Below are positions 1-61,190 of a stretch of 64,000 nt of DNA, one piece after another. The first letter of the stretch is position 1; each line of letters starts with the position of its first letter. The notes beneath the pieces were generated by a model that was given only the letters and a program-made list of their open reading frames with translations, was not told the origin of the DNA and searched no databases. A program made the translations under genes and the position numbers. The DNA lies in NCBI GenBank assembly GCA_946407765.1, contig CAMJPD010000001.1, positions 7,755 to 71,754 on the forward strand, given 5' to 3'. The stretch is from an uncultured Lachnospiraceae bacterium. Its GTDB lineage: Bacteria > Bacillota > Clostridia > Lachnospirales > Lachnospiraceae.

Positions 1-1
1 T

Positions 2-15390: not shown

Positions 15391-16419
15391 TTGAGTAAAA
15401 ATATAAAAAAAGTTTTGTCATATGTTGTAGCCATCGTTCTCGCACTTGGCATAGGCGTTACATACGCTTATGCAGTCGGCGGCAATGACACAAATAATTT
15501 AATGACAAAAACAGAATGGCAACAAAAAACAGATCAAATAAGAGCTTCAATTGACAATGTAACAAAAACAATAAATGCAACCAATATGGATTTTGTCATG
15601 AACGGTCCAAGACTCCAAGTAAGTCTTGCAGAAGGATGGCAAAATAATGGAGCAATTATACGACATGATGAAATGTTTTCTCCAACCCACTCCGATACAA
15701 CTTCTACTTGGGATTTATATCCTACACGAAACGATATATTTTTACAAGACACATTTGATGGTAGACAAAAGGTAAAACAAGTAGCTTGGGCAGATAACAG
15801 TCCAACGGGATATTCACTCCACGGTTTAAGAGAGCGCATGGCATTGAAAACAAATATTCCTGATATTTATCTAATAGTTTCAGTTTTTTCACCATTTGCC
15901 GTTTTCTTGCATTATGTACAAGTGGGAACTTATCCTATTTATAATTCAACATCTGCAATTCCTGCAAGAACTTTAACTGTTCAATTACCTCGTCCTGACT
16001 GGGTTCACTATCAAAGTGTGACAAAAACTATAGAAGATGTATCACGAACCAACTCAAGAGTATGGTACGGATATAATCTTGCAGGAAATGCAGAGTATAC
16101 AGATTCTACAATCAATGCAAGTGACGGATTTAGTAATACGGGCGATGCATATGTCAGAAAAACAGTTGCTGCAGCATCAATAACATACACAATAGACTTT
16201 CCAGCAGGAGCTAATTCTATTAGGTCTAGAGTAACAAATTTTTGGGATATTATTCCATGTAATATGAAAACACGTAAATTTGCCACAGCCGGCGATAGAG
16301 TAACAACTGACTTAGTTGGAAAATGGGGAGGTTCTGTTGCCAAAGTATATAGTCCTGCCAAAGGTTGCCTATGTCTTAAAACTTTTGTTAACGGCGAAAT
16401 CCCTATAATGAATGAATAA
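15391..16419 (+). CDS. Cassette 1, family A: secreted hypothetical protein
   Basis: 342 aa. TTG start 6 nt after AGGAGG. Signal peptide ending TYAYA. Family motifs TNMDFVMNGPRLQ, FDGRQKV, PDIYLIVSVF and C-terminal KVYSPAKGCLCLKTFVNGEIPIMNE, shared with 39019, 42518 and 45936. Confidence 0.9.
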   Translation: MSKNIKKVLSYVVAIVLALGIGVTYAYAVGGNDTNNLMTKTEWQQKTDQIRASIDNVTKTINATNMDFVMNGPRLQVSLAEGWQNNGAIIRHDEMFSPTHSDTTSTWDLYPTRNDIFLQDTFDGRQKVKQVAWADNSPTGYSLHGLRERMALKTNIPDIYLIVSVFSPFAVFLHYVQVGTYPIYNSTSAIPARTLTVQLPRPDWVHYQSVTKTIEDVSRTNSRVWYGYNLAGNAEYTDSTINASDGFSNTGDAYVRKTVAAASITYTIDFPAGANSIRSRVTNFWDIIPCNMKTRKFATAGDRVTTDLVGKWGGSVAKVYSPAKGCLCLKTFVNGEIPIMNE

Positions 16420-16436
16420 GAAGGTAGAGGCAGATG

Positions 16437-17672
16437 ATGAATAAATATATAAAAAAATGTTTAATTATATACCTAACTCTTGCCACAGTTTTATGTGGTA
16501 TGGTAGGTGTTGCTTATGCAGTAAGTTCTACTGATGCCGATGAATTTTTAACTCGCTCTGAATTTGCAGTTGATTTTGCAAGACTTGTAAAAAAATTAGA
16601 CGAGGAAGAACGAGAGGTATTAAAAAACATTTACAAATACCGTACAACAAATGTTAAATTTGTAACATGGGACACTCCAACAAAATATTACAATAGTACA
16701 AATGCCGATGGCGGATATTACAACGGAGGAAATGTATTTCCACGACCAAAAATATCTGGAGGCAGTGCCAATTATGGCTGGGGTTTTTCAAATGGCAGTG
16801 CCACAAATAAAAAACTTGGTAGATATACAAACTATTGTTTATATAGATTATGGAATGGCAATTACTATATAACAAAAAATATATATGGATATGATGATAA
16901 TTCAAGACATTATTATCCTACGGTAAACTATTCTGTTCCAATAGAAAATTTTCCAGGATGGTATTTGGAAGTAAGAAACTATTATCTAGCCAATAGTTAT
17001 ATAGGCTCTTACTGTTCAATAATAAGGCTCGACCCAAATGCTATAAATTACCCAAGCACTTCAGATACACTAATTCTTCGCTTTAAAAAAGATAAGTTCG
17101 TATATTGTGGTGATAATGTAACAAAGTTAACTACAACAAAAAACACAGTTACATATACTAGTGATTATTGGCAAGGTCCACTCGTGATAGCTCCTCTCAC
17201 TTTTGATAAGTATAGTGATTTTGCTGCCCAAGGAACTCAAAGCGCAACTTACGAAAGTTGGATTGATGAATCAACAGGCGATTTTATGATGACCATAAGA
17301 GGTCTTTCTAGATGCTATGCAACAGATACGACCAATTATTATAATTATGTATATTATTTAGCAAATTCAAATATAACAGTTTGTAAAATTATCCCATCAG
17401 ACAACGTTGAATATATGTGTGGAAACTTATATGGATATTATTCAAGCAGAGTTACTTGGCAGCCATCAATGTCATCTCCTTATGTTCCATCAGCTTGTTT
17501 CATAGGCACTGGACTGCTAGAAGATCCATATTGGCAATATGAATTTGTAGATTGTGAAAACGGAATTAAATATTGGCATGCTTATAAACCACCAGCATTA
17601 GCCCCTAGTTCTGCAACATCTAATGCTCCAACTTCAGTAGGCATACACTACTCACTTCCTATAGTTTATTAA
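16437..17672 (+). CDS. Cassette 1, family B: secreted hypothetical protein
   Basis: The second of two adjacent ATGs is chosen (GAGG spacing; N-terminus MNKYIKKCL identical to B3/B4). Signal ends VAYA. Motifs YKYRTTNVKF, YRLWNGNYYI, SVPIENFPGWYL, DNVEYMCG, CENGIKYWHAY, C-terminal HYSLPIVY. Confidence 0.9.
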   Translation: MNKYIKKCLIIYLTLATVLCGMVGVAYAVSSTDADEFLTRSEFAVDFARLVKKLDEEEREVLKNIYKYRTTNVKFVTWDTPTKYYNSTNADGGYYNGGNVFPRPKISGGSANYGWGFSNGSATNKKLGRYTNYCLYRLWNGNYYITKNIYGYDDNSRHYYPTVNYSVPIENFPGWYLEVRNYYLANSYIGSYCSIIRLDPNAINYPSTSDTLILRFKKDKFVYCGDNVTKLTTTKNTVTYTSDYWQGPLVIAPLTFDKYSDFAAQGTQSATYESWIDESTGDFMMTIRGLSRCYATDTTNYYNYVYYLANSNITVCKIIPSDNVEYMCGNLYGYYSSRVTWQPSMSSPYVPSACFIGTGLLEDPYWQYEFVDCENGIKYWHAYKPPALAPSSATSNAPTSVGIHYSLPIVY

Positions 17673-17683
17673 GGCGGTGACAT

Positions 17684-18667
17684 ATGAAGAATATAAATAT
17701 AAAAAAATTAATTCCAGGAATAATTAGCATAGTAGTAGTTATAGGCATGGCACTTCAATCATTTGCCACAGATATTGATATGGAATCATTTGTAAGAAGA
17801 GATCTCCATAAACAAACATATTATGAACTTGATTGGCTGATTGATGACATAGAAAAATCAATTGAAAGATTATATAAATGGACATGCACTAATGTTGTGT
17901 CATTTGGCGGTCAAGGAAATTATGTAAACGGAACAACAATTTCTTATCAAAGAGCTTCCACTCAAACATATCACTGGAATATGGATCCAATAATCGACTT
18001 ATCTGAAGAAGGCTACCTAAGATTCAACCCAGCCGATGCAATAAATGCTTTTGGAAACCATTCAAAGGCAGATGTATATGAAGCAGAACTTCCAGCAAGT
18101 CTTGCACTCTGGCGAAACGAAGTTGAATTATATCCAACAACAAAAATAAAAGCAAAACTAACAAGAACCTGGCCTAACACAACATCTGCCTCACAAAGTG
18201 CAACATGGACACAAGAAATAATTATGGGACCATTTAAAAAATTCCCAAACATCTCAACCCTCACAACTCAGGCCTCTACATTTTGCTCAGTCACAAAATT
18301 TTTCCCACTCTCATTTGACATGGCAAGTGTTTCATATAGATACGGAACCGAAACAGAACCAACAAGCTGGACAAGCATGACAGGTTCTCTTACCGTACTC
18401 CAAACAGATAAAAACACACAAAGCTATTCAACCATCCCAAGAGAATTACTACGAGGCGTTACGACGCAGGCAGATATAGAAGACAACTTCTATCGTGGCG
18501 ACAAAAGCAAAATTTCTACAACAGCTTGTTATTTTTATGCAAACACAACATGGGGAACAAATTTATCTAATTATGATAAAGTTTGGATTAGAGCAGTCGG
18601 CACAGTAAGCGGAACTTACGAACACAAAATTGACGGATGGACCCTCACCTCATGGAACAAAAAATAA
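17684..18667 (+). CDS. Cassette 1, family C: secreted hypothetical protein
   Basis: 327 aa, 11 nt after B1. Signal ends QSFA. Motifs YYELDWLIDDIEKSIERLYKWTCTNV, LPASLALW, MGPFKKFP, EPTSWTS, C-terminal TSWNKK. Confidence 0.9.
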   Translation: MKNINIKKLIPGIISIVVVIGMALQSFATDIDMESFVRRDLHKQTYYELDWLIDDIEKSIERLYKWTCTNVVSFGGQGNYVNGTTISYQRASTQTYHWNMDPIIDLSEEGYLRFNPADAINAFGNHSKADVYEAELPASLALWRNEVELYPTTKIKAKLTRTWPNTTSASQSATWTQEIIMGPFKKFPNISTLTTQASTFCSVTKFFPLSFDMASVSYRYGTETEPTSWTSMTGSLTVLQTDKNTQSYSTIPRELLRGVTTQADIEDNFYRGDKSKISTTACYFYANTTWGTNLSNYDKVWIRAVGTVSGTYEHKIDGWTLTSWNKK

Positions 18668-38824: not shown

Positions 38825-38851
38825 AAAAGCACCTATTTAGGTGCTTTTTTT
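38825..38851 (+). terminator. Rho-independent terminator of giant gene 2
   Basis: AAAAGCACCT (38825-38834) / AGGTGCTTTT (38839-38848), 4-nt loop, run of T; starts 9 nt after the stop. Confidence 0.85.
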
Positions 38852-39018
38852 GATGCTTATTTTCTTAATTTACTTTAAGATGTATTAAAATGCGTTGTAT
38901 TTAAGGGGCAAATTTTGTAAAATTAATAATAACATAGATTAAGTGTAATTTGCCTTGGCAAGTTATGTTTTGTTTATGTAGCTTAGTTTGTATAAAAATT
39001 ATCCTTGCAGGAGGGGAT

Positions 39019-40104
39019 ATGGAAAGACATATAAAAAAATATTTGTCATATGTGCTTGTGATTGTTCTTGCAGTAGGAATGGGCATCTCATATGCATATG
39101 CAGTTGGAGCCAACGACTCTAATGCTTTTGTTACTATACAAGAATATGAAGAAAGAGTTGAGGAAATTGAAACTTCAATTAATAATATTTCTAAAACAAT
39201 ATTAGATACCAATATGGATTATGTAATGAATGGTCCTAGACTTCAAGCTAATCTTGTAGAAGGTTTTGAAAATAAAGGTGGTACTAACTTAGCCGGAGCA
39301 AGCGTAATGTATTATCCATATAGAGACAATGCTGAAAGTACATGGTTTAGCAGATATTCTCCAGTTAACTATGTAATGCTTGGAGATACATGGGATGGTA
39401 GACAAGTTGTAACAGGTAATATTCCAACCTATGCAGGAGATGTTAATAATACTTTGTTTCCATGTATGTGTAGATTTGCAGTTAAGTCAGACACTCCAAA
39501 TATATACATAATTCTTTCTTTCTATTATGCTGGCATAGGAGATCCAGATGGAATAAGAATTTATATAGGTCAAGCAAGTTATGTTGACTTAAGTAAAGAA
39601 ATACAAGACTACTCTCAAGCTACTACAATTACTGCAACAGTTCCTCTCACAGAATGGTGGAATCTTGGTGGAACTGCAGGGCCACAAACACTAGCAAGAA
39701 ATAATACAAGTATATATACAGGATCTAAGAGTGATTCAATGTTCCCACCATATCTTATTTACTCTACTAATAATAGTGCAACAACATATAACTTATCAAA
39801 TCCAGGAACTGGTTGGCTAACTCGTGCTGTTACACCACTTTCTGCTACTGTTACATTTGAATTCCCAGCAAATAGCTGTATCATACGATATGAAAATACA
39901 AGCACACCATATTTTGCATGGAATTTATTTCCTATAGATATGAAAGGAAGAAAATATGGTAATGCTTATGATCAGATTTATGTAAGTGATACTACTACTA
40001 CATATAAGTCAGCCCACGTAATTGCTAAAGTTTATAGTCCACAGAAAGGTTGTCTTGCACTTAAGTCTTATCTTAATGGTGAGATACCAATTCTTAATGA
40101 ATAA
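39019..40104 (+). CDS. Cassette 2, family A: secreted hypothetical protein
   Basis: The internal ATG at 39019 is chosen (GGAGGGG RBS; N-terminus MERHIKKYLSYV aligns with the other A proteins). 361 aa. SYAYA-VGANDSNAFVT, TNMDYVMNGPRLQ, TWDGRQVV, PNIYIILSFYY, KVYSPQKGCLALKSYLNGEIPILNE. Confidence 0.9.
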   Translation: MERHIKKYLSYVLVIVLAVGMGISYAYAVGANDSNAFVTIQEYEERVEEIETSINNISKTILDTNMDYVMNGPRLQANLVEGFENKGGTNLAGASVMYYPYRDNAESTWFSRYSPVNYVMLGDTWDGRQVVTGNIPTYAGDVNNTLFPCMCRFAVKSDTPNIYIILSFYYAGIGDPDGIRIYIGQASYVDLSKEIQDYSQATTITATVPLTEWWNLGGTAGPQTLARNNTSIYTGSKSDSMFPPYLIYSTNNSATTYNLSNPGTGWLTRAVTPLSATVTFEFPANSCIIRYENTSTPYFAWNLFPIDMKGRKYGNAYDQIYVSDTTTTYKSAHVIAKVYSPQKGCLALKSYLNGEIPILNE

Positions 40105-40151
40105 TTTTGCAAGGTGCATAAAGCAAGAACAAGAAATTAATAGGAGTTAGT

Positions 40152-41402
40152 ATGAAGAACTATCTTAGAAAAACTTTAATGATATATATATCACTTGCGA
40201 CCATCCTTGTTGGTATGGCAGGAGTTTCTTATGCTATCACAGCATCTGAAGCAGATGAATATGTAACAAGAGCTGAGTTTACAGTTAAGATGGAATCGGT
40301 TAGAGATAAGCTTAATGAAAAGGAAATAAAACTTCTTGGTGAGATTAATAAATATCGTTCAACCCATGTGAAATTCACAACATTTGATTCACCTACTCGT
40401 CAACACACAGCTGCAAATGCAAGAGGTGGTTATTACAATGGCGGTAATATGTTCCCAAGACTTAGATTAAACAATGAATGGTATTATGGTTCGCTTGGAT
40501 GGGCAGCAGATATTAATGGAAAGAGTGATGGTCAATATAGACACCTTAATTTATTTAGATTGTGGAATGGCAACTATTACATAACGAATGAAATTTCTGC
40601 CAAGACATCTCTTGAATCAGGTACTGGTACACAATACTTTGGAATGAGAAAATGTGCTGTCCCTGTAGAAAATTATCCAGGTTGGTATATGACCCTAATT
40701 ACCTATAGCTCTTTTGGACATTATATAAGATGGTGGGGTTCACTTGTAAAGCTTGATCCAAATGTTCCTATGCCAAGCAACAATGAGCTTATGAGAATGA
40801 GAAATGGATGGATAACTCTTAGATTCAAGAAAGAATTATGGACATATATTTCTCCAACACTTACAACTAAAATTACAAAAAATAAGTTTACAACTAGTAT
40901 TACAACATATCATTATAGTAATATGAATGAAGGATTTCTTGCTGACTCTTACCGTTCAGATTTGAGTACTAATTCAAATACTACAATGAATTATTCAACA
41001 TGGTTAGATGAGACAACAGGAGACTATATGTGCTCAATACAATATGTAAGACCTGTGTCTGAATATTATGGAGAGGATGTATATGTATTCAATAGTTCCA
41101 ATATAGGACTTTGCAGACTTGTTCCTCAAGATAACGTTGAGTATCTTATGGGATCTATTATATATGATGGTTCTGGTTCAGGAAGAACTAGCACATCTTA
41201 TGCTTCTATATATCCAGATCCACGTTATATAGGAACAGGACTTTATAATGACCCATATTATGAATATGAAATCGTGGACTGCGAGAATGGCATAAAGTAT
41301 TGGCATGTAAGAAAGAAACCAACTAAGTATCTTATTTCAGGTGCAGCTGCCACAGTACCAACAACACTTGCTTTAAATTATTCTATTCCTATTGTTTATT
41401 AA
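40152..41402 (+). CDS. Cassette 2, family B: secreted hypothetical protein
   Basis: 416 aa. RBS AGGAG. Signal ends VSYA. INKYRSTHVKF, FRLWNGNYYI, AVPVENYPGWYM, WLDETTGDYM, DNVEYLMG, CENGIKYWHV, NYSIPIVY. Confidence 0.9.
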   Translation: MKNYLRKTLMIYISLATILVGMAGVSYAITASEADEYVTRAEFTVKMESVRDKLNEKEIKLLGEINKYRSTHVKFTTFDSPTRQHTAANARGGYYNGGNMFPRLRLNNEWYYGSLGWAADINGKSDGQYRHLNLFRLWNGNYYITNEISAKTSLESGTGTQYFGMRKCAVPVENYPGWYMTLITYSSFGHYIRWWGSLVKLDPNVPMPSNNELMRMRNGWITLRFKKELWTYISPTLTTKITKNKFTTSITTYHYSNMNEGFLADSYRSDLSTNSNTTMNYSTWLDETTGDYMCSIQYVRPVSEYYGEDVYVFNSSNIGLCRLVPQDNVEYLMGSIIYDGSGSGRTSTSYASIYPDPRYIGTGLYNDPYYEYEIVDCENGIKYWHVRKKPTKYLISGAAATVPTTLALNYSIPIVY

Positions 41403-41445
41403 TTAATTTTATTGATTGCAATATACCAGATATTGAGGAAAAGTT

Positions 41446-42423
41446 ATGAATAAACTAAATTTAAGAAAATTGATTCCAGGAATTATAAGTGTGTTCATTA
41501 TCATGAGCATGGGATTTGCTACATTTGCCACAAATCTTGATCTAGAAGCATTTGTAAAGAGAGATGTTTTTCTTACTAAGTATTACGAGCTTGATTGGAA
41601 GGTAGATGAACTTGATTCTATGATTCAGAGACTTTATAAATTTACATGTGATAATGTAAAGTCTTTTTCAGGAACATATATGCACTATAACTCATCACCA
41701 TATTTTGCTATGCCTAATCAAGGAAATAATACATATCCACTTAGAAATTATGTCATTGCAGAAATAAGTGATGAAGGATATCTTCATGTTAACAAGAGAT
41801 TTACTCTCTATGTCAACTCATTTACAAAATCTAATGTAAAAACACTTACAAGAGAAATTCCTGCATCACTATGTGCATGGATGCCAGGTATAGAACCAGC
41901 TCCAAATTGTAAAGTAAAATATAATATTAAGATAACAGATACAAACCCAACACAAACTACAGGAACGAGCAGTACAGTAGAAGTAATCATGGGACCATTC
42001 AAAAAATTCCCAAGAATTACAGGAACGGGACTTTCAGGTGCTCTCATATGTGAAGTTCCAAGAGTTTTAATTCTCGGAGGGTTTAACCCAGCAAACTCAG
42101 TGTACTTTGCACAAAATCAAGAAAAGGAACCAACATCATGGTCATCAACTACAACAGCTATGTATGTAGGCACAAATAACAAGGGTTCGCAATATTCTCG
42201 TTTTCCAGATATGGACATAACACAATTTACAAATGATATATATACACTCGATTCTTCAAAGCAGACACAAACATTTTATTTTTCAAACGCTTTTTCGCAA
42301 GACTTATCTAATGCAACTAATGTATGGATAAGATATTATACGACAGATAACAATAATATAAATACACAGGGTAATTATGCCGCATTCCCACAGATGAACA
42401 TCACCTCGTGGAACTATAGATAA
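41446..42423 (+). CDS. Cassette 2, family C: secreted hypothetical protein
   Basis: 325 aa. Signal ends ATFA. YYELDWKVDELDSMIQRLYKFTCDNV, IPASLCAW, MGPFKKFP, EPTSWSS, TSWNYR. Confidence 0.9.
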   Translation: MNKLNLRKLIPGIISVFIIMSMGFATFATNLDLEAFVKRDVFLTKYYELDWKVDELDSMIQRLYKFTCDNVKSFSGTYMHYNSSPYFAMPNQGNNTYPLRNYVIAEISDEGYLHVNKRFTLYVNSFTKSNVKTLTREIPASLCAWMPGIEPAPNCKVKYNIKITDTNPTQTTGTSSTVEVIMGPFKKFPRITGTGLSGALICEVPRVLILGGFNPANSVYFAQNQEKEPTSWSSTTTAMYVGTNNKGSQYSRFPDMDITQFTNDIYTLDSSKQTQTFYFSNAFSQDLSNATNVWIRYYTTDNNNINTQGNYAAFPQMNITSWNYR

Positions 42424-42517
42424 GTAGTAAAAGGAAATAATGAGAATAGAAGAACAATTATTTCCCAACACCCTCTGGTATTCTCGTATAACATTTCAGT
42501 ACAATAAGGAGAAAACA

Positions 42518-43573
42518 ATGAACAAACACATCAAAAGATGCATGTCATATGCCCTCGGCATCATTCTTGCAATGGGCATCGGCCTTTCGTATGCGTATGC
42601 AGTCGGCGCCAATGACTCAAACGCATTCGTCACAGTGACAGAGTTTGATGCAAAGGTTGCCCAAATCGAAGCATCACTTGATAATGTTGCACAAACTATA
42701 AAAACTACGAATTTAGACTTTGTCATGAACGGTCCAAGACTTCAAGCAAGCCTTATTGAAGGGATGGAAAATACAAGTGGTGCTTCTACTTACGGAAATC
42801 CATTTGAATCTACCATGTCTTCTGGACTTAGTACAACAACCAATAACTATTTAATGAGAAGCAATATAGTTCTTACAGATCAATGGGATGGTAGGCAATC
42901 TGTGGATAGATATGACTATTATGGTGGAGATATGAATGGCCCAGAATATTCTTGCAAGATGAGGTATGCGCTTAGATCGGATCAAGATCCAAATATTTAT
43001 TTAATTTTTAGTTATTATTATGTTGCAAATTCAGGACATCCAACTCTCGTACAAGTTTGGTATCTTGATATAAGTAAGCCATATCAAGATTATTCTACTG
43101 CTAGAAGCCTTACTGTTACTTTCTCATATCAAGATCACATGCTTTTTAATGGAAATCCATTTTATGACACATCAAGAAGTAGCTCATATATATACACATC
43201 GAACAGACTTGAGTATATGCAAAATACTAGATTGTGCTATTCAGGTAGTAATAATACTCCTACATATGGGGCTTTAGCAAATCCAGGAACAGGCTATTTT
43301 ACTTGCCAAGTAATAGGAGACAATGTAACACAGACATATGACTTCCCTGCAAACTCAGGAGGTATGAGACTAGTTGCAGGATGGCTATCTTTTGGTCCAT
43401 GTGCGTTAAAAAGAATGGAAGGACGTAAATATGGGAATCTATCAGATATGCTAAGAGTATCTGTTACAGGCGACACAAAGCCATCACAAGTTTATAAAGT
43501 ATTCTCTCCTCAAAAAAACTGTCTAGCTCTTAAATCATACATGAATGGTGAGATACCAATATTTAATGAGTAA
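42518..43573 (+). CDS. Cassette 3, family A: secreted hypothetical protein
   Basis: The internal ATG at 42518 is chosen (AAGGAG RBS; MNKHIKRCMSYA aligns with the family). 351 aa. SYAYA-VGANDSNAFVT, TNLDFVMNGPRLQ, QWDGRQSV, PNIYLIFSYYY, KVFSPQKNCLALKSYMNGEIPIFNE. Confidence 0.9.
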   Translation: MNKHIKRCMSYALGIILAMGIGLSYAYAVGANDSNAFVTVTEFDAKVAQIEASLDNVAQTIKTTNLDFVMNGPRLQASLIEGMENTSGASTYGNPFESTMSSGLSTTTNNYLMRSNIVLTDQWDGRQSVDRYDYYGGDMNGPEYSCKMRYALRSDQDPNIYLIFSYYYVANSGHPTLVQVWYLDISKPYQDYSTARSLTVTFSYQDHMLFNGNPFYDTSRSSSYIYTSNRLEYMQNTRLCYSGSNNTPTYGALANPGTGYFTCQVIGDNVTQTYDFPANSGGMRLVAGWLSFGPCALKRMEGRKYGNLSDMLRVSVTGDTKPSQVYKVFSPQKNCLALKSYMNGEIPIFNE

Positions 43574-43586
43574 TAGGAGAACGGCG

Positions 43587-44858
43587 ATGAATAAATATAT
43601 TAAAAAGTGTTTAATTGTATATGTTTCTCTTGCACTAATCCTTGTTGGTATGGCTGGAGTTTCTTATGCCATTACTGCATCAGATGCAGATGGTTATGTA
43701 ACAAGATCAGAATTTGCAACAGATATGACATATCTCCAAACAAAACTAGATGAAAAAGAATCAAGTCTTTTAGGCAAGATAAATAAATATCGTTCAACAG
43801 ATATAAAATTTATAACATGGGATTCTCCTGACAAATATTATGACGTAGGAACAAGTAATAGATTCAGCGGTTATCATACTGGTGGAAACTTTTTTCCAAG
43901 AAAAAAATCTGCTAACGGCTCTAACTATATGTATTCATATGGTTTATATAACAATATGTATCAGAGAGGTACACAAAACTATAGAACAGACATAAATATA
44001 TATAGGCTATGGAATGGAAATTATTTTATCTGCCCATCTTTAGGAGACAAAGAAAGTTTGTCTGACGACTCTGGAATAGAATATTATGATCTTAGAACAT
44101 ATGCTGTTCCTGTAGAAGACCTTCCAGGATGGTATATGGTTATGGGAACTTTCTATCAAGAATATGCTTATTTAAGATTAATTTTTTCTCTTGTAAAACT
44201 TGATGCTTCAGTTCCTATGCCATCTAATAGTGAATTGCTTAATATATATAATACTTCACATACAATTCGTCTTAAGAAAGATCTTTGGGATTATTGCGGT
44301 GACTATACCCCAAAATTAACAACAACTCCAACAACACTAACAGCAACTTCTACATATGCATACAATACAAACTGGACTGGTCCGCTTTGCCCTACTTGGA
44401 TTACAGGTAATAGATCTGGTTCTTCAGGAACTGATTCTTGCGTATGGACAGGAGTAGTTGATAAGGATACTGGAGATTATATACTTACATTCAACCATGT
44501 GCGTCCAGTTTCTGCATATTACCAGGATATATGGTATGACTATTCTGGAACTAATTGCATGATATGTAGATTTTTACCAAAGGATAATGTTGAATATATG
44601 ATGGGACCTATGTCAACGACATCACTTAACTATGCCCCTTCATCAACTAATCAAACATCAAGTCAGATGGCAATCCCAGATGCGAGATACATAGGAACAG
44701 GATTGCATGATGATCCATCATGGGAACATGAAATTGTAGAATGTGTTAATGGAATTAAATACTGGCATGCTGTCAGAAGAGCAGAGAACACAAGAAAGAG
44801 TACTGTCAAGACACCTTTTGGACTTTCGTTCCACTGTTCATTACCAATAGTATATTAA
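43587..44858 (+). CDS. Cassette 3, family B: secreted hypothetical protein
   Basis: The ATG at 43587 is chosen (AGGAG RBS; MNKYIKKCL). 423 aa. INKYRSTDIKF, YRLWNGNYFI, AVPVEDLPGWYM, DNVEYMMG, CVNGIKYWHA, HCSLPIVY. Confidence 0.9.
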   Translation: MNKYIKKCLIVYVSLALILVGMAGVSYAITASDADGYVTRSEFATDMTYLQTKLDEKESSLLGKINKYRSTDIKFITWDSPDKYYDVGTSNRFSGYHTGGNFFPRKKSANGSNYMYSYGLYNNMYQRGTQNYRTDINIYRLWNGNYFICPSLGDKESLSDDSGIEYYDLRTYAVPVEDLPGWYMVMGTFYQEYAYLRLIFSLVKLDASVPMPSNSELLNIYNTSHTIRLKKDLWDYCGDYTPKLTTTPTTLTATSTYAYNTNWTGPLCPTWITGNRSGSSGTDSCVWTGVVDKDTGDYILTFNHVRPVSAYYQDIWYDYSGTNCMICRFLPKDNVEYMMGPMSTTSLNYAPSSTNQTSSQMAIPDARYIGTGLHDDPSWEHEIVECVNGIKYWHAVRRAENTRKSTVKTPFGLSFHCSLPIVY

Positions 44859-44883
44859 AACAAATGTTTATAAGGTGAAAGTT

Positions 44884-45882
44884 ATGAATATAATAAATTT
44901 AAAAAAATTTCTCCCAGGATTTATAAGTGTGGTTATAATAGCAGGCATGGCTGCAAGTACATTCGCAACAAATATTGACCTATCAGCATTTGTTCAGAGA
45001 GATACATATAAAACAAAATTTTATGAGCTTGAGTGGCGCATAGATGATATAGATAACGAGCTTGATAGACTTTATAAATATACATGTACTAATATTAAAT
45101 CATTTGCTGGGTCAAATTTTGCATATAATGGATATGTTTTTAGATCTGCATTTCATCCAAATGCTCAAACTAGTGCAACATATGTTGCAGCTTCTATAGG
45201 AAAGATGTTAGATACAAGTCAAAGCAAGTATTTAAGATTTAATTCTGCAGGACTTCTTAGTTGGGCTTCTGCTACATATGATTCAACAAAAACGCTTCGC
45301 GTGTTTGAGTATAGTGTTCCAGCAAGTCGTTGCATATGGCGTGATGACATAGAGTTATTGCCAGAAACTAAAGTGTCACTAAGAGGAACTTTAGATGGAA
45401 TTATAAACGCAACATCTTCAATAGAAATAGTTATGGGACCATTCAAGAAATTTCCTAAGATCACAAGCCCAGGAATGGGGAAAACGACGGGATATGTATG
45501 TGAATGGCCTACAGCAGTATTGCACAATGCATGGTCTGATAGAACAATATATTATGCTTCAGGTTCTAAAACAAAACCAACATCATGGACTACAGAATCA
45601 AGTGCAAAAATGTATATTACATATGCCACAAGAGGAATAACTTCAAATTCTAAGACAGTGCCTTCAACAGATGAAGATAGAGCAGGAGGATTCTTCAAGG
45701 AAGCCATGAAGGACTATACTCAACAACTCTATATTTACACATCTGCCTTTAATGCACTTGATGGTAAGGAAAATTGCTGGGTAAGACTAAATTTTTCAAT
45801 GAGCAACGATACAGGCTCTATGGCAGCAAGACTTGATAGTAGCTTTGTAAATCACACCAACTGGAACACCCACGAGGAATAA
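44884..45882 (+). CDS. Cassette 3, family C: secreted hypothetical protein
   Basis: The ATG at 44884 is preferred to the GTG at 44875 (AAGGTGA RBS; MNIINLKKFLPGFISV aligns with C1/C2). 332 aa. FYELEWRIDDIDNELDRLYKYTCTNI, VPASRCIW, MGPFKKFP, KPTSWTT, TNWNTHEE. Confidence 0.85.
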   Translation: MNIINLKKFLPGFISVVIIAGMAASTFATNIDLSAFVQRDTYKTKFYELEWRIDDIDNELDRLYKYTCTNIKSFAGSNFAYNGYVFRSAFHPNAQTSATYVAASIGKMLDTSQSKYLRFNSAGLLSWASATYDSTKTLRVFEYSVPASRCIWRDDIELLPETKVSLRGTLDGIINATSSIEIVMGPFKKFPKITSPGMGKTTGYVCEWPTAVLHNAWSDRTIYYASGSKTKPTSWTTESSAKMYITYATRGITSNSKTVPSTDEDRAGGFFKEAMKDYTQQLYIYTSAFNALDGKENCWVRLNFSMSNDTGSMAARLDSSFVNHTNWNTHEE

Positions 45883-45935
45883 CAGGGACGTAAGAATAAT
45901 TATTTCCCACTTAATAAATATACAAGGAGATTATG

Positions 45936-46958
45936 ATGAAAACGAACATTAAAAAGTATCTTTCATATGTTCTCGGTATTGTTCTCGCAATGGGCCTTGG
46001 CCTTTCGTATGCATATGCAGTCGGCGCCAATGACTCTAATGCATTCGTCACCAAGACAGAGTGGCAGGTGAAGGTAGCTCAACTTGAGACCTCACTTGAC
46101 AATGTAAATAAGACAATTAAAGATACTAATATGGATTTTGTGATGAACAGACCAAGATTGCAGGTTAATCTTTTCGAGGGATTACAAAACTGTGCATTTC
46201 CAACAAGAGAATCAAGACTTTACTTTGCTCCATCTGGTTATCACAGTACCTCTTTTTCGAGTATAGAAAATCAGTATCCAAAGTGGAATGGACTATATCT
46301 TGCAGATCAGTGGAATGGAAAACAAAAAGTTGTAAATTCTTATTGGCCAACAGGAGATACATCTTATGAAACAGAAAGCTTTTGCTGCAGATATGCTCTT
46401 GCAACAACAACACCAGGTTATTATGTAATAGTATCTGTATTTTATAGATCTGCACACACATTCCACTATGTTAAGTTAGGAAAATATCCTTTTGAGTCAT
46501 CTGTATCAGCTAAATCACTTCAAGTAAAGTTTAAGAAATCAGAATGGGGAAACATACACAATAATAGTCAAGTAAGTGCATATAGCAGATCTAATTCATA
46601 TATTTATTCGGGAAATGTATATCCACAAAACACATCCTACGTAAACTGGGTAAATGGTGCTGCAGATGGCTACACAGGTACAAATGCATACACATCACGC
46701 GTTGATGATGGAGAATACTGGACACAAACTTTTGAATTTCCATCTGGTAGCTGGGCGATGAAATGTGTAGGTAGTTCGTCTCCTTATCATTTGTTCCCTT
46801 TAGATATGACTACGAGAAAATTTGGAACGCTTTATGATACATGTAATGTGAACCCAACAGACCAATGGGGTGAAGTAGCCAAGGTCTATAGTCCAGCCAA
46901 AGGTTGTTATTGCTTAAAGTCATATATTAATGGCGAAGTTCCTATACTTAATGAGTGA
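45936..46958 (+). CDS. Cassette 4, family A: secreted hypothetical protein
   Basis: The second of two adjacent ATGs is chosen (AAGGAG spacing; MKTNIKKYLSYV has the same length as A2). 340 aa. SYAYA-VGANDSNAFVT, TNMDFVMNRPRLQ, QWNGKQKV, GYYVIVSVFY, KVYSPAKGCYCLKSYINGEVPILNE. Confidence 0.9.
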   Translation: MKTNIKKYLSYVLGIVLAMGLGLSYAYAVGANDSNAFVTKTEWQVKVAQLETSLDNVNKTIKDTNMDFVMNRPRLQVNLFEGLQNCAFPTRESRLYFAPSGYHSTSFSSIENQYPKWNGLYLADQWNGKQKVVNSYWPTGDTSYETESFCCRYALATTTPGYYVIVSVFYRSAHTFHYVKLGKYPFESSVSAKSLQVKFKKSEWGNIHNNSQVSAYSRSNSYIYSGNVYPQNTSYVNWVNGAADGYTGTNAYTSRVDDGEYWTQTFEFPSGSWAMKCVGSSSPYHLFPLDMTTRKFGTLYDTCNVNPTDQWGEVAKVYSPAKGCYCLKSYINGEVPILNE

Positions 46959-46972
46959 TGGAGGCAGAGATT

Positions 46973-48220
46973 ATGAATAAATATATTAAAAAGTGTTTAG
47001 TTGTATATATATCTCTAGTTGTGATTCTATGTGGCATGGTAGGAATTACTTATGCTATAACAGCATCTGATGCAGACCAATATATTACCAGATCTCAATA
47101 TGCAACAGATATGAATCATTTGCAATCGAAGCTTGAAGAGAAAGAATCAAGCATTATGGGCAAAATTAATAAATATCGTTCAACAGATGTTAAGTTTGTA
47201 ACATACGATAATCCTATAAAGCAACACCTTAGTGGAACAACTAATTTTATAGGAAAATACAATGGAGGAAACTATTTCCCAAGGCAATATCCCGGCAATG
47301 CCGGTGGTAGAAATGCCACATATGAAGCTGTATCATATCAAAAGCAGGGAACAAATGCACATTTGAATTTATATAGATTATATAATGGTAATTATCTCAT
47401 TTCTAATGCTATGGGATATTCAGATGATAGTACTTATACTTTATATCCTACGACAAATTTTGCTGTTCCATGTGAAAATTTACCAGGTTGGTATCTAGAA
47501 TGTAGATTACAATATCAAGGCTGGAATGTTTGCTACTACCTTGTATCATTATTAAAACTAGATGCAACTGTTCCATATCAAAAACCATACGCTACAGAAA
47601 GAAATAGAATACATAATATGGAATTGATGTTCCGTTTTAAGAAAGATTTCTTCAAATATACAAGTGATTATGCAACAAAATTAACTCCAACACCTACTAC
47701 ATACAGTGCTAATATAGCACGTTTCTATAATTCAGCATATAATCAACCTTTCTCATATTGTTATCACAATACAGAAAGTTCTAATAGTGAGGCGGTAACT
47801 ATTCGTTCATGGCTTGATGAGGATACGGGGGATTATATGATGGGAGTAAAGGGACTTTATGCTAATATCCCTGATTATGCTTCTGCAACCATGTGGTTTA
47901 CTAGTTCAAGTATAGGACTCTCAAGACTTATAGTTTCGGATAATGTTGAATACCAATGTGGTAATACTTATGGATATTTCTTTACAAATACAGGTGGAAA
48001 TAGCGGACAATCTCAAGGTGGATATCCACCTCCATGTCACATAGGAGAAGGGCCTGGCGCATATGGTGATGGTTACTGGGAATATGAATTTGTTGATTGT
48101 GAAAACGGAATAAAATATTGGCATGCTTATAGAAAAGCAAGAAATGCAAATCCAACAGGTGAGACGGGAACAGGATATTCTTCTGTAGGCGTTCACTATA
48201 ATATTCCTATATTATATTAA
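46973..48220 (+). CDS. Cassette 4, family B: secreted hypothetical protein
   Basis: The ATG at 46973 is chosen (GGAGG RBS). The first 27 nt are identical to B3. 415 aa. INKYRSTDVKF, YRLYNGNYLI, AVPCENLPGWYL, DNVEYQCG, CENGIKYWHAY, HYNIPILY. Confidence 0.9.
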   Translation: MNKYIKKCLVVYISLVVILCGMVGITYAITASDADQYITRSQYATDMNHLQSKLEEKESSIMGKINKYRSTDVKFVTYDNPIKQHLSGTTNFIGKYNGGNYFPRQYPGNAGGRNATYEAVSYQKQGTNAHLNLYRLYNGNYLISNAMGYSDDSTYTLYPTTNFAVPCENLPGWYLECRLQYQGWNVCYYLVSLLKLDATVPYQKPYATERNRIHNMELMFRFKKDFFKYTSDYATKLTPTPTTYSANIARFYNSAYNQPFSYCYHNTESSNSEAVTIRSWLDEDTGDYMMGVKGLYANIPDYASATMWFTSSSIGLSRLIVSDNVEYQCGNTYGYFFTNTGGNSGQSQGGYPPPCHIGEGPGAYGDGYWEYEFVDCENGIKYWHAYRKARNANPTGETGTGYSSVGVHYNIPILY

Positions 48221-48261
48221 TTCATAATATACGGTTATAAATTTTAGATAAGGGTGAAATT

Positions 48262-49239
48262 ATGAAAGCAAATATAAATAAAAAAATGATAACTTCCATA
48301 GTAAGCATTGTTATTGTCGCAGGCATGGCTCTTCAATCATTTGCTACAAATATAGACCTTGAAGCCTTCGTTAATAAAGAGGAATATATGTCTAAGTACT
48401 ATGAGATCGATTGGAGAATTGATGAGATAGATGCAGAGCTTGAAAGACTTTATAAGTTTACATGTACTAATGTTGCTTCATATGGAGGAACAGGTGATAA
48501 TACATATCGTTCTGATCAGCCATTTTACATGAGAAATGTAACACAAACATACCCATGGTATCCAAATCCTATTGTAGATACAAGTACTGAAGGTTATCTT
48601 CGTGTTAATTTCCAGGATATGATACATAAGTATGGCGCTCATGGTAAGTATGACGTTTTTGAAAGAGAAGTCCCAGCTTCATTATGTAAGTGGAGAACAG
48701 GTTTTGAGTTATATCCTAATACAACAATTAAGATGAAGGTAACAAGAAACCTTGCAAATACAACTTCAGCTTCTCCAACTAAAGGTATGTCTGCTGAAAT
48801 GATAATGGGACCATTCAAGAAAGTCCCTTATATTACACAGACTTCTTATGCAGGAGCATTAATGACAACAGACCAATTTTTCTGGCACTATCAAACTTCT
48901 TACAACATGTATTATGCTTATGGCACAGATAAAGCGCCAACAACATGGTCAACTCAGATGGGAAGTAATATTTACCTATCAAATATGAGCCTTGGTAATA
49001 ACAAGCCAGATAATTTTCCAGCTGAATTAAGATATGAAGTAGATATAGAAAATTCAAAATATAAATATGACAAGGCATCTAATGTAGCCTTTATGTATTG
49101 TTCAAGTGCAATGACAACAGATCTTCGCTCTCGTGATAAGGTATGGCTTAGGGCATATGCAAGTTGGACAGGAGAATTAACAGACTTAACTCTCGCTGAT
49201 TTAACATGTACAACCTGGAACTACAGACCAGCAGAATAA
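48262..49239 (+). CDS. Cassette 4, family C: secreted hypothetical protein
   Basis: 325 aa. Signal ends QSFA. YYEIDWRIDEIDAELERLYKFTCTNV, VPASLCKW, MGPFKKVP, APTTWST, TTWNYRPAE. Confidence 0.9.
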   Translation: MKANINKKMITSIVSIVIVAGMALQSFATNIDLEAFVNKEEYMSKYYEIDWRIDEIDAELERLYKFTCTNVASYGGTGDNTYRSDQPFYMRNVTQTYPWYPNPIVDTSTEGYLRVNFQDMIHKYGAHGKYDVFEREVPASLCKWRTGFELYPNTTIKMKVTRNLANTTSASPTKGMSAEMIMGPFKKVPYITQTSYAGALMTTDQFFWHYQTSYNMYYAYGTDKAPTTWSTQMGSNIYLSNMSLGNNKPDNFPAELRYEVDIENSKYKYDKASNVAFMYCSSAMTTDLRSRDKVWLRAYASWTGELTDLTLADLTCTTWNYRPAE

Positions 49240-49310: not shown

Positions 49311-49352
49311 AAGCAAAAACACCTATTTATATGGTGTTTTTTGCTTGTTTTT
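49311..49352 (+). terminator. Rho-independent terminator closing the cassette array
   Basis: AAGCAAAAACACC (49311-49323) / GGTGTTTTTTGCTT (49333-49346), 9-nt loop, one bulged T, followed by GTTTTTT. Confidence 0.8.
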
Positions 49353-49354
49353 TA

Positions 49355-49363
49355 TGTTATAAT
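49355..49363 (+). promoter_or_regulatory. Candidate extended -10 promoter element (TGTTATAAT) for the 49499 gene
   Basis: Exact TGnTATAAT immediately after the terminator. No convincing -35 at 17-bp spacing. About 130-nt leader to the start codon. Sequence pattern only. Confidence 0.35.
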
Positions 49364-49498
49364 TGATACCAAATGGGTGGCGTTTATTTCGCCGTTCGTT
49401 TGTATTTTTTGAGTATTTTGCTTGCTCAAAACTTATTAAAGTAGCCATCAAGGCAGATGTTCAAAACTTAAATTGATATAACACACGGAGGTTTCTCT

Positions 49499-51835
49499 AT
49501 GTTAAAAATAAAATTTAAAAAATTCTTCTCACTATTCCTTGTGGTGGTGCTTTTGCTTGCGCATGTAGGCACAGCATATGCCCAAAATTCAGAATCAAGT
49601 AGTGAAACAAGTACAAGTAGTGAAGTAACAGTTGATGATGAAACAACATCAAGTGATTTTAATTATGAAGAAAGTGAAGAAGAAGTTGAAGCAGAATTAG
49701 AAGAAGAAAATATAGAGAAGGAAGAACCAGAAGATCCAGAAGATTATGCAGAAGATTCAAGCGAGAACGTAGAAGAAGAAACCGAAGTTAGTGAAGAAGA
49801 CACAGCCGAAGTAACTGAAACTAGTAAAGAACTTAGTGAAGAAGATACTAAGGAAGAAACCGAACTTAATGAAGAAGACATAAATGAAGAAACAACAGAT
49901 ATCGAAGAAGATGTGGAAGAAGAAACCGAAGTTAGTGTAACAGAAACTGAAATAGAAGAGACCGAAGTTAGTGTAACAGAAACTGAAATAGAAGAGACCG
50001 AAGCCGAAGGCGAGGGATCTGATGTCGCACGAAGTGCGGCAGAAGAAACTACAGTAGCAGAGCAAGAAGAAGAAATAGAAGTAGAAATAATAGACGGTGA
50101 AGTTGTAGAAAAAAATAAGGAAGAGACAGAAGAAGAAATAGTAGAAGAAGTAGCAGAAACAGTTCCAGTAACTTATGCACAAGATCCAGGTCTTCCAGCT
50201 ATTTCTTGGATAGGAACTCCAGAATGTGAAGCAAGTTATGATATAACAATAGATCCAAACGGTGGAACAGTTTCAAAACTTACAGTAGCAGGTGTTGAAG
50301 TAGATCTATCAGGAATAGACACTACACAAATTTTTATTCATACAATAACAACTTCAAGAACAGAAGAAATAGAAATTGTTGCAGAAAACGAAGTTGGTGA
50401 AGAGGTAGCATTATTCCCACAAGTAACAGATCATACATATACATATAGTGTATCTTCTCTAACAGTAAGTTCACATAGAATAAACTCAACATGCTCTGTG
50501 TGTGGACTTGATTGTGGTGAAGCACAATTTGATGCACCATCAGGAATAGGTGTAGAGTGGGAAGAAGGTGGAGCAGAACCATTTGAACTACCAGTTTATC
50601 CTAGTCCAGAAGACTGGCTTGCACCACTTCTTTTATTAGTATATGAAAACAATGAGCATGTTCCTGCACCAACATCACCAAACCAACCAACAGTTCGTCT
50701 AGAAACAGCAGATGGTCAGGTATTAGTAACTCAGACATTTACAATATTAAAAAGACAAAGTCTTGATCCGCCAACAGGATTTACAACTCAGAATGCATCA
50801 TCAGCATCAGCAAATGATGGTTCAATTTTAGGTGTTGATGTTGATACAATGGAATGGCAAACAGAAATAACTCAGCCATATCAGCCAATTCCATCATCGC
50901 CATGGACAGGACTTACGCCAGGAACTTACAGAATTCGTTTTAAAGAAACCGATGATCATATTGCATCAAACGCAGCAATTGTCACTGTAGGATATAACCA
51001 ACCTCCAAGCCCAGGTGGCGGCGGCGGTGGCGGCGGCGGTGGCGGCGGCGGCGGAGGCGGCGGCGGCGGAGGCGGCGGCCTTGGCACTGTCTCTCTTGGA
51101 AATCCGTCTACACCTTATGCGCCAATAGGTGAAACAATTCCAAATATTCCAGCACAACTTGTTGTAGATACTGTTTCTAATACAACTAAAGCTGTAACAT
51201 TAGCAAATGGTGTAACAACATATGTTAAGGGCTGGGGATTTGTTCATGATAATGTTAATAATGCAGACAACTGGTATTATTTCAATCCAACAACAGACTT
51301 AATGGAAACTGGTTGGCTTACAGAAAAGGGAAATGTTTATTATTTACATACCAATGAAGACTATCTTAAAGGTCGTGTTTATTCAGGATGGCATAACATT
51401 TCTGGCATAGTATATTATTTCAGCGAAACAAATTATGCTCTTGAACTTATGCTATCTCTTTCAGAAGCACAATCTCATGGAATCATAACTTATGAAGATA
51501 GTATTGCAGCATTCCAAGAAGGAAGAATTCTTGAAGCAACTCATGGAACTATGGGCCTTGAAACAATGAATTCTAATGCTGACCAACAATCTGCTGCTCA
51601 GGCTCAAGCCCAATTACAATTACAAATTCAAAATGCAGTTACTACAGAGCTAGTTCGTGAAGCACTTGCAGCAAGACAGGATATAATTCGTGCTATAGAA
51701 CGTGGAGCACTTTCTATAGAAGATGCATATGCAATGAGCGGTGGCCAGATTCCAGCAATAGATTATAAGAGCAATATGCAAAGTAATCAAGAAATTATAA
51801 ATCAGATCGCAAATCTTATTGCAGCATTTAGATAA
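49499..51835 (+). CDS. Surface protein: signal peptide, polyacidic region, unknown domain, 22 x Gly linker, choline-binding-type anchor
   Basis: 778 aa. GGAGG RBS. Signal ends GTAYA. The Glu-rich region 49.6-50.17 kb shares EEPEDP(N/E)DY with giant gene 2. G22 at 51014-51079. The anchor block NWYYFNPTTDLMETGWLTEKGNVYYLHTNEDYLKGRVYSGWHNISGIVYYF matches those of both giants. Confidence 0.9.
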   Translation: MLKIKFKKFFSLFLVVVLLLAHVGTAYAQNSESSSETSTSSEVTVDDETTSSDFNYEESEEEVEAELEEENIEKEEPEDPEDYAEDSSENVEEETEVSEEDTAEVTETSKELSEEDTKEETELNEEDINEETTDIEEDVEEETEVSVTETEIEETEVSVTETEIEETEAEGEGSDVARSAAEETTVAEQEEEIEVEIIDGEVVEKNKEETEEEIVEEVAETVPVTYAQDPGLPAISWIGTPECEASYDITIDPNGGTVSKLTVAGVEVDLSGIDTTQIFIHTITTSRTEEIEIVAENEVGEEVALFPQVTDHTYTYSVSSLTVSSHRINSTCSVCGLDCGEAQFDAPSGIGVEWEEGGAEPFELPVYPSPEDWLAPLLLLVYENNEHVPAPTSPNQPTVRLETADGQVLVTQTFTILKRQSLDPPTGFTTQNASSASANDGSILGVDVDTMEWQTEITQPYQPIPSSPWTGLTPGTYRIRFKETDDHIASNAAIVTVGYNQPPSPGGGGGGGGGGGGGGGGGGGGGGLGTVSLGNPSTPYAPIGETIPNIPAQLVVDTVSNTTKAVTLANGVTTYVKGWGFVHDNVNNADNWYYFNPTTDLMETGWLTEKGNVYYLHTNEDYLKGRVYSGWHNISGIVYYFSETNYALELMLSLSEAQSHGIITYEDSIAAFQEGRILEATHGTMGLETMNSNADQQSAAQAQAQLQLQIQNAVTTELVREALAARQDIIRAIERGALSIEDAYAMSGGQIPAIDYKSNMQSNQEIINQIANLIAAFR
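49925..49996 (+). repeat. Perfect 36-bp tandem duplication (2 copies plus 7 nt of a third) encoding TEVSVTETEIEE
   Basis: ACCGAAGTTAGTGTAACAGAAACTGAAATAGAAGAG at 49925-49960 and 49961-49996, read directly. Confidence 0.95.
51014..51079 (+). repeat. GGT/GGC/GGA tract encoding 22 consecutive Gly
   Basis: Read directly, in frame (PSP-G22-LGTVS). Confidence 0.95.
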
Positions 51836-51848
51836 TTAGGATATCAAC

Positions 51849-52637: not shown

Positions 52638-52650
52638 GTCAGGTGAAAGT

Positions 52651-61189: not shown

Positions 61190-61190
61190 A
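61153..61190. repeat. 38-bp direct repeat, left copy
   Basis: AGGAGGAAACAAATCCGGAACATGGACAATATCTTAAA, identical to 62781-62818. It contains the last 12 codons and stop of the AlbA_2 gene and the ATG of the 61174 gene. Confidence 0.95.

Follow-up and report, generated by a model that had tools for sequence, protein, structure and literature searches.

Tandem three-gene cassettes for putatively exported proteins of new families in an uncultured Lachnospiraceae bacterium

What are three protein families for, when no sequence or structure library recognises them and a bacterium devotes to them a fifth of a 64-kb stretch of its genome? The question is raised by 64,000 nucleotides from an uncultured Lachnospiraceae bacterium (assembly GCA_946407765.1, contig CAMJPD010000001.1, positions 7,755 to 71,754 of the forward strand); this whole stretch is called the window below. 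Twelve + strand open reading frames (ORFs) form four triplets in it, T1 to T4, in each of which genes A, B and C follow one another in that order (Table 1). A preliminary description of this DNA had reported four such paralogous cassettes, three of them head to tail and a fourth at 15391-18667, and all 12 ORFs were confirmed, at the same coordinates or a few bases off. The triplets span 15391-18667 (T1), 39019-42423 (T2), 42518-45882 (T3) and 45936-49239 (T4), and sum to ~13.4 kb or 21% of the window, a minor correction to the earlier figure of about 13 kb. We find that B and C fold confidently in silico, that the order of the three genes is invariant, and that related uncultured rumen bacteria have arrays of at least five cassettes. 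More tentatively, we propose that the three products of a cassette work together in one extracellular complex.

All 12 genes are complete, each with a GGAGG/AGGAG-like Shine-Dalgarno site 5-10 nt before its start, and their products measure 340-361 amino acids (aa) for A, 412-423 aa for B and 325-332 aa for C. Packing is tight, with intergenic gaps of 11-47 nt inside triplets and of 53-94 nt from triplet to triplet in T2-T4. Within each family the T1-T4 paralogues are 34-45% identical, and family hidden Markov models (HMMs) score every window copy at 366-564 bits, far beyond chance. Identity is ~50-85% over the N-terminal 80 aa, 11-45% in the core and 60-100% over the last 20-40 aa, in agreement with the conserved ends and variable cores described before; the motifs quoted at that time hold as consensus strings, not as exact sequences in every copy. 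The cores had also been called rich in Tyr, Trp, Asn, Ser, Thr and Gly, and a compositional bias is real when they are set against the housekeeping genes of the window (Tyr 6.6-11.1 versus 4.2%, Trp 2.2-2.7 versus 0.8%, Thr 9-12.4 versus 4.7%): they are rich in Tyr, Trp, Thr and Ser, and poor in Lys and Glu.

T1 and T2 bracket a 6,628-codon ORF (18930-38816), which is a surface-protein gene. A hairpin separates it from T2, further hairpins follow T4 (Table 1), and a terminator scan gave no + strand candidate in the T2/T3/T4 gaps, the remaining + strand candidates being two weak 5-6-bp stems within T4 coding sequence. Because terminators are present only before T2 and after T4, T2-T4 probably form one nine-gene transcription unit. 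An Rfam scan of the whole window returned no riboswitch, leader or other element.

To assess the cassette beyond the window, 48 loci (L-numbers below) were fetched from ENA, Logan and JGI/whole-genome shotgun (WGS) assemblies, and 46 of them plus the window, that is, 47 sources, were searched with the family HMMs. Among the 74 B genes found, A lies directly upstream of 70 and C directly downstream of 65, and in the other 4 and 9 cases, respectively, the contig ends there; the order A-B-C has zero exceptions. The preliminary description had asked whether the three genes stay co-linear in other genomes: they do, in 74 of 74 cases. Tandem arrays of at least five triplets occur in L006, L014 and L017. 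One ENA sample is labelled bovine metagenome and belongs to PRJEB23561, a bovine rumen gene catalogue, and nearly all matches in a collection of 241 million metagenome records came from two WGS sets. The cassette is otherwise found almost only in cattle-rumen metagenomes, and in one lineage only. The host itself looks like a monoderm member of the Bacillota by its gene features: window genes use TGA as a stop, the surrounding surface proteins have repeats of the choline-binding and Listeria-Bacteroides types, and there are lipoproteins as well. The window has a G+C content of 34%, and all its ORFs of at least 150 aa are on the + strand except one, a 188-aa ORF inside the giant gene.

The surroundings of the triplets are less constant than their gene order. 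Giant choline-binding proteins precede triplets in four loci (L016, L020, L029, L030); L013, which comes from a related species and is syntenic through serC/serA, has a 777-aa choline-binding protein after its triplet. L002-L005 have a single triplet amid housekeeping genes, while triplets of L001, L008 and L009 stand amid HicAB/RelBE, DUF3800 and serine recombinase genes, two of the latter flanking a triplet in L001. In L047, from a strain closely related to that of the window (~91% identity over T1), a second triplet, with RhuM, HsdM and DNA methylase genes, takes the place of the 6,628-codon gene. Linkage to adhesins is recurrent without being universal, and the earlier picture of cassettes embedded among giant adhesins applies to the close relatives of the window; elsewhere the surroundings are of the housekeeping, toxin-antitoxin or restriction-modification kind. 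No assembly or chaperone gene and no immunity gene recurs beside triplets, and no phage structural genes lie near those of the window.

Do these families have relatives anywhere? Pfam gave no credible match for single proteins or for all 199 aligned family members, the families Leukocidin, ETX_MTX2, aerolysin and HBL included, and no carbohydrate-binding module (CBM), glycoside hydrolase or lyase family recurred among the 199. Neither NCBIfam nor the PADLOC defence models matched A, B or C credibly, and PHROGs offered nothing better than E 0.012, scattered over families without assigned function. PDB sequence profiles, queried with alignments of 4 and of 60-72 sequences, contained no relative. 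An exhaustive HMMER search with the B profile in 1.84 billion representative proteins returned 37 matches, all of the B family itself and 19 of them full length. A word-indexed search of 5.8 billion proteins yielded 69 clusters of A, 81 of B and 75 of C, a ratio near 1:1:1, and none of these clusters has an informative name (a few read 'hypothetical protein') or a Pfam domain. In the species genomes of GTDB, two pattern-based scans detected no relative, a weak negative as the window's own genome was not retrievable there. Scans of IMG/VR for A, B and C, and tblastn of B in 50,697 phage genomes (INPHARED) and 72,556 plasmids, gave none, and literature searches for comparable systems brought up nothing relevant.

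The same picture emerged at the level of structure. AlphaFold2 modelled T1-B and T1-C with a mean predicted local distance difference test score (pLDDT) of 84.9 each and predicted template modelling (TM) scores of 0.79 and 0.81, respectively, and Foldseek searches of both models in PDB, and of T1-B in BFVD, returned nothing at E<=1e-3. Only trimeric viral fibre heads recur as compact matches of B as well as of C, and every one of these is sub-threshold. For B this is the fibre head of mouse adenovirus 2, both in PDB (5nc1; E 3.5e-3, probability 0.63) and in BFVD (E7CH51, the same fibre; E 2.9e-3, probability 0.82); for C, reovirus sigmaC (2bt8, E 0.11) and adenovirus heads appear at E 0.1-1. 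Target-normalised TM-scores do not exceed 0.37, and this resemblance of predicted models is taken as a faint lead, not as a match. An uncharacterised Streptococcus phage C1 protein is also among the sub-threshold matches (probability 0.72). An outer-membrane porin, suggested by composition and by the terminal Tyr of B, was rejected: the neighbours have choline-binding repeats, the strand pattern is irregular, and the OmpG and OmpW matches in Foldseek are noise (E 0.15-1.7). The statement that A, B and C belong to no recognisable family therefore held up in the profile and structure searches that the preliminary description had named. Because no defining feature of any family considered was found in them, we rate the three families, which are without known relatives, as new at both the family and the fold level.

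The families are nevertheless related to one another. Profile-profile alignment with hhalign joins A and B over 211 columns (97.6% probability, E 3e-12), and the two cores alone, with the N-terminal module (N-module) removed, still align at 93% probability (E 3e-7). The N-module of C matches that of A (E 4.5e-6) and of B (E 4.3e-5). By these comparisons, A and B are remote paralogues and C has only the N-module in common with them; at least in part, the three appear to descend from one ancestor. The common N-module is composed of a cleavable Sec signal, a [D/N]xxx[F/Y]V motif and an amphipathic helix of 4-5 heptads, with a 3-4 a/d hydrophobic spacing in all three families. The stretch between cleavage site and post-helix motif measures 43 aa in 43/43 members of A, 45 aa in 54/54 of B and 38 aa in 66/67 of C, in contrast to the cores, which are rich in indels. 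The C-terminal ends are fixed as well, as ..PI[VL]Y in 66/67 members of B and ..I[LFM]NE in 56/60 of A, and the core of B holds the invariant residues D200, D283, D323, E326, E370 and H382.

Export is predicted by a Sec-type signal in 190 of the 199 members. LPxT[GAS] in the last 60 residues was found in 0/199 and a lipobox in 0/199, a hydrophobic 19-mer past residue 40 occurs in just 1/199, and no wall-binding repeat or domain (choline-binding, SLH, CWB2) recurs among the Pfam matches of the 199; sortase or pilin signatures were also absent from A, B and C. At the N-terminus the window proteins have a classical Sec signal and an AXA-type site (..YAYA↓V, ..SYA↓I, ..SFA↓T), not the class III signal of type IV pilins. 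A Sec-type signal had been announced for all 12 products and is present in all of them; the endings then listed, A/S-Y-A or (S/T)-F-A, do not cover T4-B (Table 1). A, B and C would thus be exported without a wall or membrane anchor. Of the cell-surface system previously suggested, the export is supported and the surface location is not, since no anchor or wall-binding repeat was found and release is possible. The signal peptides are generic for this organism, because unrelated secreted neighbours (at 49499, 51849 and 52651) carry the same MKxNFKK...AYA style; a special signal peptide for the cassette proteins was rejected on this ground.

How old are the copies, and do they exchange sequence? 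At the DNA level the paralogues share 67-77% identity in their 5' ends, and identical residues are encoded by identical codons in ~55-65% of cases, in ends and core alike. Because codon identity is equal in both, the conserved ends are kept by protein-level selection and not by gene conversion, which was rejected for this reason and for the limited identity of the 5' ends. On conspecific contigs T2 is 96.5% and T1 98.4% identical to the window, the same as flanking DNA. The paralogues are ancient and the repertoire is diversified; 'diversifying', the term of the preliminary description, finds no support in these comparisons. Distance matrices of A, B and C over 35 non-redundant triplets are correlated (Mantel r 0.51 for A-B, 0.66 for B-C and 0.32 for A-C, with 0/999 permutations reaching the observed r), and the triplets for the most part evolve as units.

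We propose, with a probability of about 0.4, that the helices of A, B and C hold the three chains together as a 1:1:1 hetero-oligomer with variable, beta-rich, ligand-binding heads, and that several ancient isoform sets are co-expressed. Each cassette would be a translationally tight operon unit. Its three Sec-exported products would each consist of the N-module and a Tyr/Trp/Thr/Ser/Asn-rich beta domain that ends in a fixed C-terminal strand. The three helices would pair in parallel and in register to make an A:B:C coiled-coil stalk, most simply that of a heterotrimer, with a different beta head on each chain. The working surface would be made up of the variable loops of these heads and would probably bind a glycan or another cell surface, and co-expression of anciently diverged sets would provide a repertoire of specificities, not a switch between variants. 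We favour this reading because of the fixed A-B-C order, the near-1:1:1 cluster counts and the tight spacing, because of the common descent, the fixed-length helix module and the correlated divergence of triplets, and because of the fibre-head structural hints, the anchorless export and the terminators placed only around T2-T4.

A number of observations weigh against the hetero-oligomer. The C core has no sequence relation to the A and B cores. The models are of monomers only, and the helix could pack on its own domain (the C helix has a pLDDT of ~90 in the monomer). The fibre-head similarity is below significance, and tight linkage would by itself suffice for the fixed order and the correlated divergence. 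For A, B and C, neither a ligand nor an anchor nor a partner came to light. Finally, at 8 or more loci A genes are truncated exactly before MDFVMNGPRLQ, without signal and helix, beside complete B and C genes (Table 1); that they persist as intact ORFs is hard to square with an obligate A:B:C stalk. In several cases a short contig ends immediately 5' of a truncated A gene. These genes, together with nearby serine recombinases, also gave rise to the idea of a shufflon or inversion system with truncated A genes as silent cassettes, which was rejected: the inverted repeats at the L001 and L009 junctions are 77-85% complementary, the level seen between paralogues.

If the hetero-oligomer exists, it would represent a new architecture of bacterial extracellular recognition, with new beta folds, and would offer a handle on how an abundant uncultured rumen lineage meets feed particles, other microbes or its host. 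If it does not, the families are still well-delimited protein 'dark matter', with alignments, models and 47 loci. A more far-reaching claim is doubtful: that the cassettes encode a hitherto undescribed class of bacterial extracellular heterotrimer, with a short parallel coiled-coil stalk and three non-identical beta heads of a new or extremely diverged fibre-knob-like fold, serving as a multi-isoform recognition or adhesion repertoire of uncultured rumen Bacillota and being a cellular, Sec-exported and heteromeric counterpart of viral attachment fibres or C1q. The adenovirus fibre and reovirus sigma1 and sigmaC resemble the proposed assembly in having an N-terminal oligomerising stalk (a coiled coil in sigma1 and sigmaC) and a C-terminal beta-sandwich head with variable receptor-binding loops. 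However, they are viral homotrimers of one gene and are not Sec-exported, whereas the cassette specifies three chains in a cellular genome; the B core (~280 aa) is also larger than the viral knob, to which its similarity is sub-threshold. The A, B and C chains of C1q, as well as fibrinogen and laminin, are known to combine three jointly encoded paralogous chains, an N-terminal rod and globular C-terminal heads, a likeness of architecture only: these proteins are eukaryotic, have collagen or long coiled-coil rods, and showed no detectable relation to A, B or C in sequence or fold.

Other explanations account for part of these data. Sugar-binding proteins typically have an aromatic- and hydroxyl-rich, charge-poor make-up. 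Together with the rumen origin and the invariant Asp, Glu and His residues of the B core, such a composition would suit three secreted proteins that act independently, such as carbohydrate-binding proteins or enzymes for plant or microbial polymers of the rumen, and that are co-transcribed without forming a complex. Yet such proteins would require neither strict 1:1:1 synteny nor a common fixed-length helix module, and with no CBM, glycoside hydrolase or lyase family recurring among the members we hold this to be unlikely. Quite unlikely, too, is a polymeric surface structure (a fibre, a sheath or an S-layer-like lattice) whose conserved N- and C-terminal segments make the subunit contacts while variable cores face outward, as in flagellins and pilins. 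It would agree with the conserved ends around a variable middle, the fixed C-termini, the high copy number in the longest arrays and the adjoining surface-protein genes, but the SLH, CWB2, sortase and pilin signatures are missing, no assembly or chaperone gene recurs alongside, and nothing tells such a polymer from a discrete complex. As for known surface polymers, A, B and C lack the sorting signal of sortase-anchored pilins and LPXTG proteins, and Endospore appendage (Ena) clusters are characterised by a DUF3992 jellyroll of ~120 aa, against products of 325-423 aa that have no Pfam match.

Secreted two- and three-component toxins such as Hbl, Nhe and leukocidins are encoded as adjacent paralogues. 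The cassette might likewise specify a multi-component beta-pore-forming toxin or bacteriocin directed, in receptor-specific variants, at bacteria, protozoa or host cells, and triplets do lie in variable islands with toxin-antitoxin and restriction-modification genes. We consider this improbable: the Foldseek match of B to alpha-haemolysin is at noise level (E 0.04, probability 0.12, TM 0.14-0.19), the four toxin families named above were unmatched in Pfam, and no immunity gene recurs. The tripartite toxins of the ClyA family (Hbl, Nhe, AhlABC, SmhABC) are similar in that three paralogous secreted proteins, in fixed order in one operon, act together, but they are all-alpha (Pfam PF05791), whereas the cores of the cassette proteins are beta-rich (AlphaFold, B and C) and none of the 199 members matches Pfam. 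Antigenic or phase variation, in which an expressed copy is replaced by recombination with, or inversion onto, silent cassettes through conserved ends (vsa, pilS, shufflons), could explain the conserved ends and variable cores, the 5'-truncated A copies of other genomes, the recombinase genes around the L001 triplet and the inverted orientation of some triplets. It is very improbable, however, as the 12 window genes are all intact and have a Shine-Dalgarno site and a signal each, the 5' ends are no more than 67-77% identical with codon identity equal in ends and core, conspecific T1 and T2 differ no more than their flanks, the inverted repeats at truncated A genes are far from near-perfect, and repeats of the invertible-promoter type were not found upstream of T2. 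The near-identical sites, homogenised ends and silent copies of the vsa, shufflon and pilE/pilS systems are absent from the window. In tandem paralogous families of secreted or surface proteins in Bacillota and Mollicutes, such as staphylococcal tandem lipoproteins and Mycoplasma vsa/vsp, diverged copies also lie side by side in variable parts of the genome and have conserved signal ends, but they are single-gene units with lipoprotein anchors and often with switching machinery, while the cassette has three genes, no lipobox and no switching signature. The chance of a domesticated phage receptor-binding, fibre or tailocin module is slim. The best structural matches, sub-threshold as they are, do point to adenovirus and reovirus fibre heads and to the phage C1 protein, but there is no credible PHROG, no relative of A, B or C in IMG/VR or of B in phages and plasmids, and no phage structural gene nearby; phage fibres are not known to carry Sec signals.

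Table 1. Cassette genes, terminator candidates and truncated A genes (window coordinates unless a locus is named)
Feature	Coordinates	Strand	Remarks
T1-A	15391..16419	+	342 aa, TTG start; predicted signal peptide to ~residue 28 (..YAYA↓V), heptad helix ~39-66, then beta-rich core
T1-B	16434..17672	+	412 aa; AlphaFold: signal helix 4-34, helix 41-71, all-beta core 134-410; C-terminal ..PIVY fixed
T1-C	17684..18667	+	327 aa; AlphaFold: helix 39-65, then beta-rich core
T2-A	39019..40104	+	361 aa; opens probable nine-gene transcription unit
T2-B	40152..41402	+	416 aa
T2-C	41446..42423	+	325 aa
T3-A	42518..43573	+	351 aa
T3-B	43587..44858	+	423 aa
T3-C	44884..45882	+	332 aa
T4-A	45936..46958	+	340 aa, TGA stop
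T4-B	46973..48220	+	415 aa; signal ends T-Y-A
T4-C	48262..49239	+	325 aa
Hairpin and T-run 3' of giant gene	38826..38852	+	direct reading and inverted-repeat scan; sets giant gene apart from T2-T4
Two terminator-like hairpins 3' of T4-C	49316..49402	+	49316-49345 by direct reading; 49370-49402 by scan
Truncated A genes	L001 6893-7687; L008 3815-4666, 10933-11790; L009 3573-4424, 10691-11506; also L022, L025, L032, L034, L041		start at MDFVMNGPRLQ

Paralogy also joins the giant ORFs at 1-10717, which extends past the left window end, and 18930-38816, whose products share 30% identity over 2,308 aa. The second repeats internally every ~2.2-2.4 kb; it has Listeria-Bacteroides repeats as well, choline-binding repeats stand at its C-terminus, and its (GGC/GGT)n tract at 37587-37674, which encodes poly-glycine, is a possible site of in-frame slippage. 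The difference between L047 (13297-21029) and the window (18668-38816) amounts to a strain-level replacement of a surface-protein gene. Downstream of T4, 49499-53481 encodes three secreted proteins or lipoproteins of 778, 262 and 276 aa, an arrangement that is syntenic in L013; choline-binding repeats and a Gln/Ala-rich C-terminus mark each of the first two, and the 778-aa protein faintly matches a Mycoplasma transglutaminase-related lipoprotein family.

In L009, two tandem units (11595-11830) separate a truncated A gene from a DUF3800 gene; each has a near-consensus promoter (TTGACA-17-TATAAT), then a GC hairpin and a T-run, and the two may be small RNA genes. In the window, an AAA_14/DUF4143 ATPase gene (10991-12256) that is unrelated to A, B and C matches PDC-S01, a candidate defence gene of PADLOC (E 1.5e-61); copies at least 90% identical are present on many related contigs, and stand beside or between triplets in L006, L007, L039, L047 and L048. 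The region ~12315-13575 is absent from L047 and L048, where a single 191-aa gene lies between the DUF4143 ATPase and an M20 peptidase, compared with a 411-aa and a 196-aa gene in the window. The former, a predicted lipoprotein (12253-13488), is a remote paralogue of the 366-aa product of 61174-62274 (BLASTP E 9e-7), and a small ORF follows each of the two. The ORF at 59858-61189 encodes a Schlafen AlbA_2 domain together with HATPase_c_4 and winged-helix domains, and PADLOC matches it weakly to Argonaute-associated and CARF/Csa3-type regulators.

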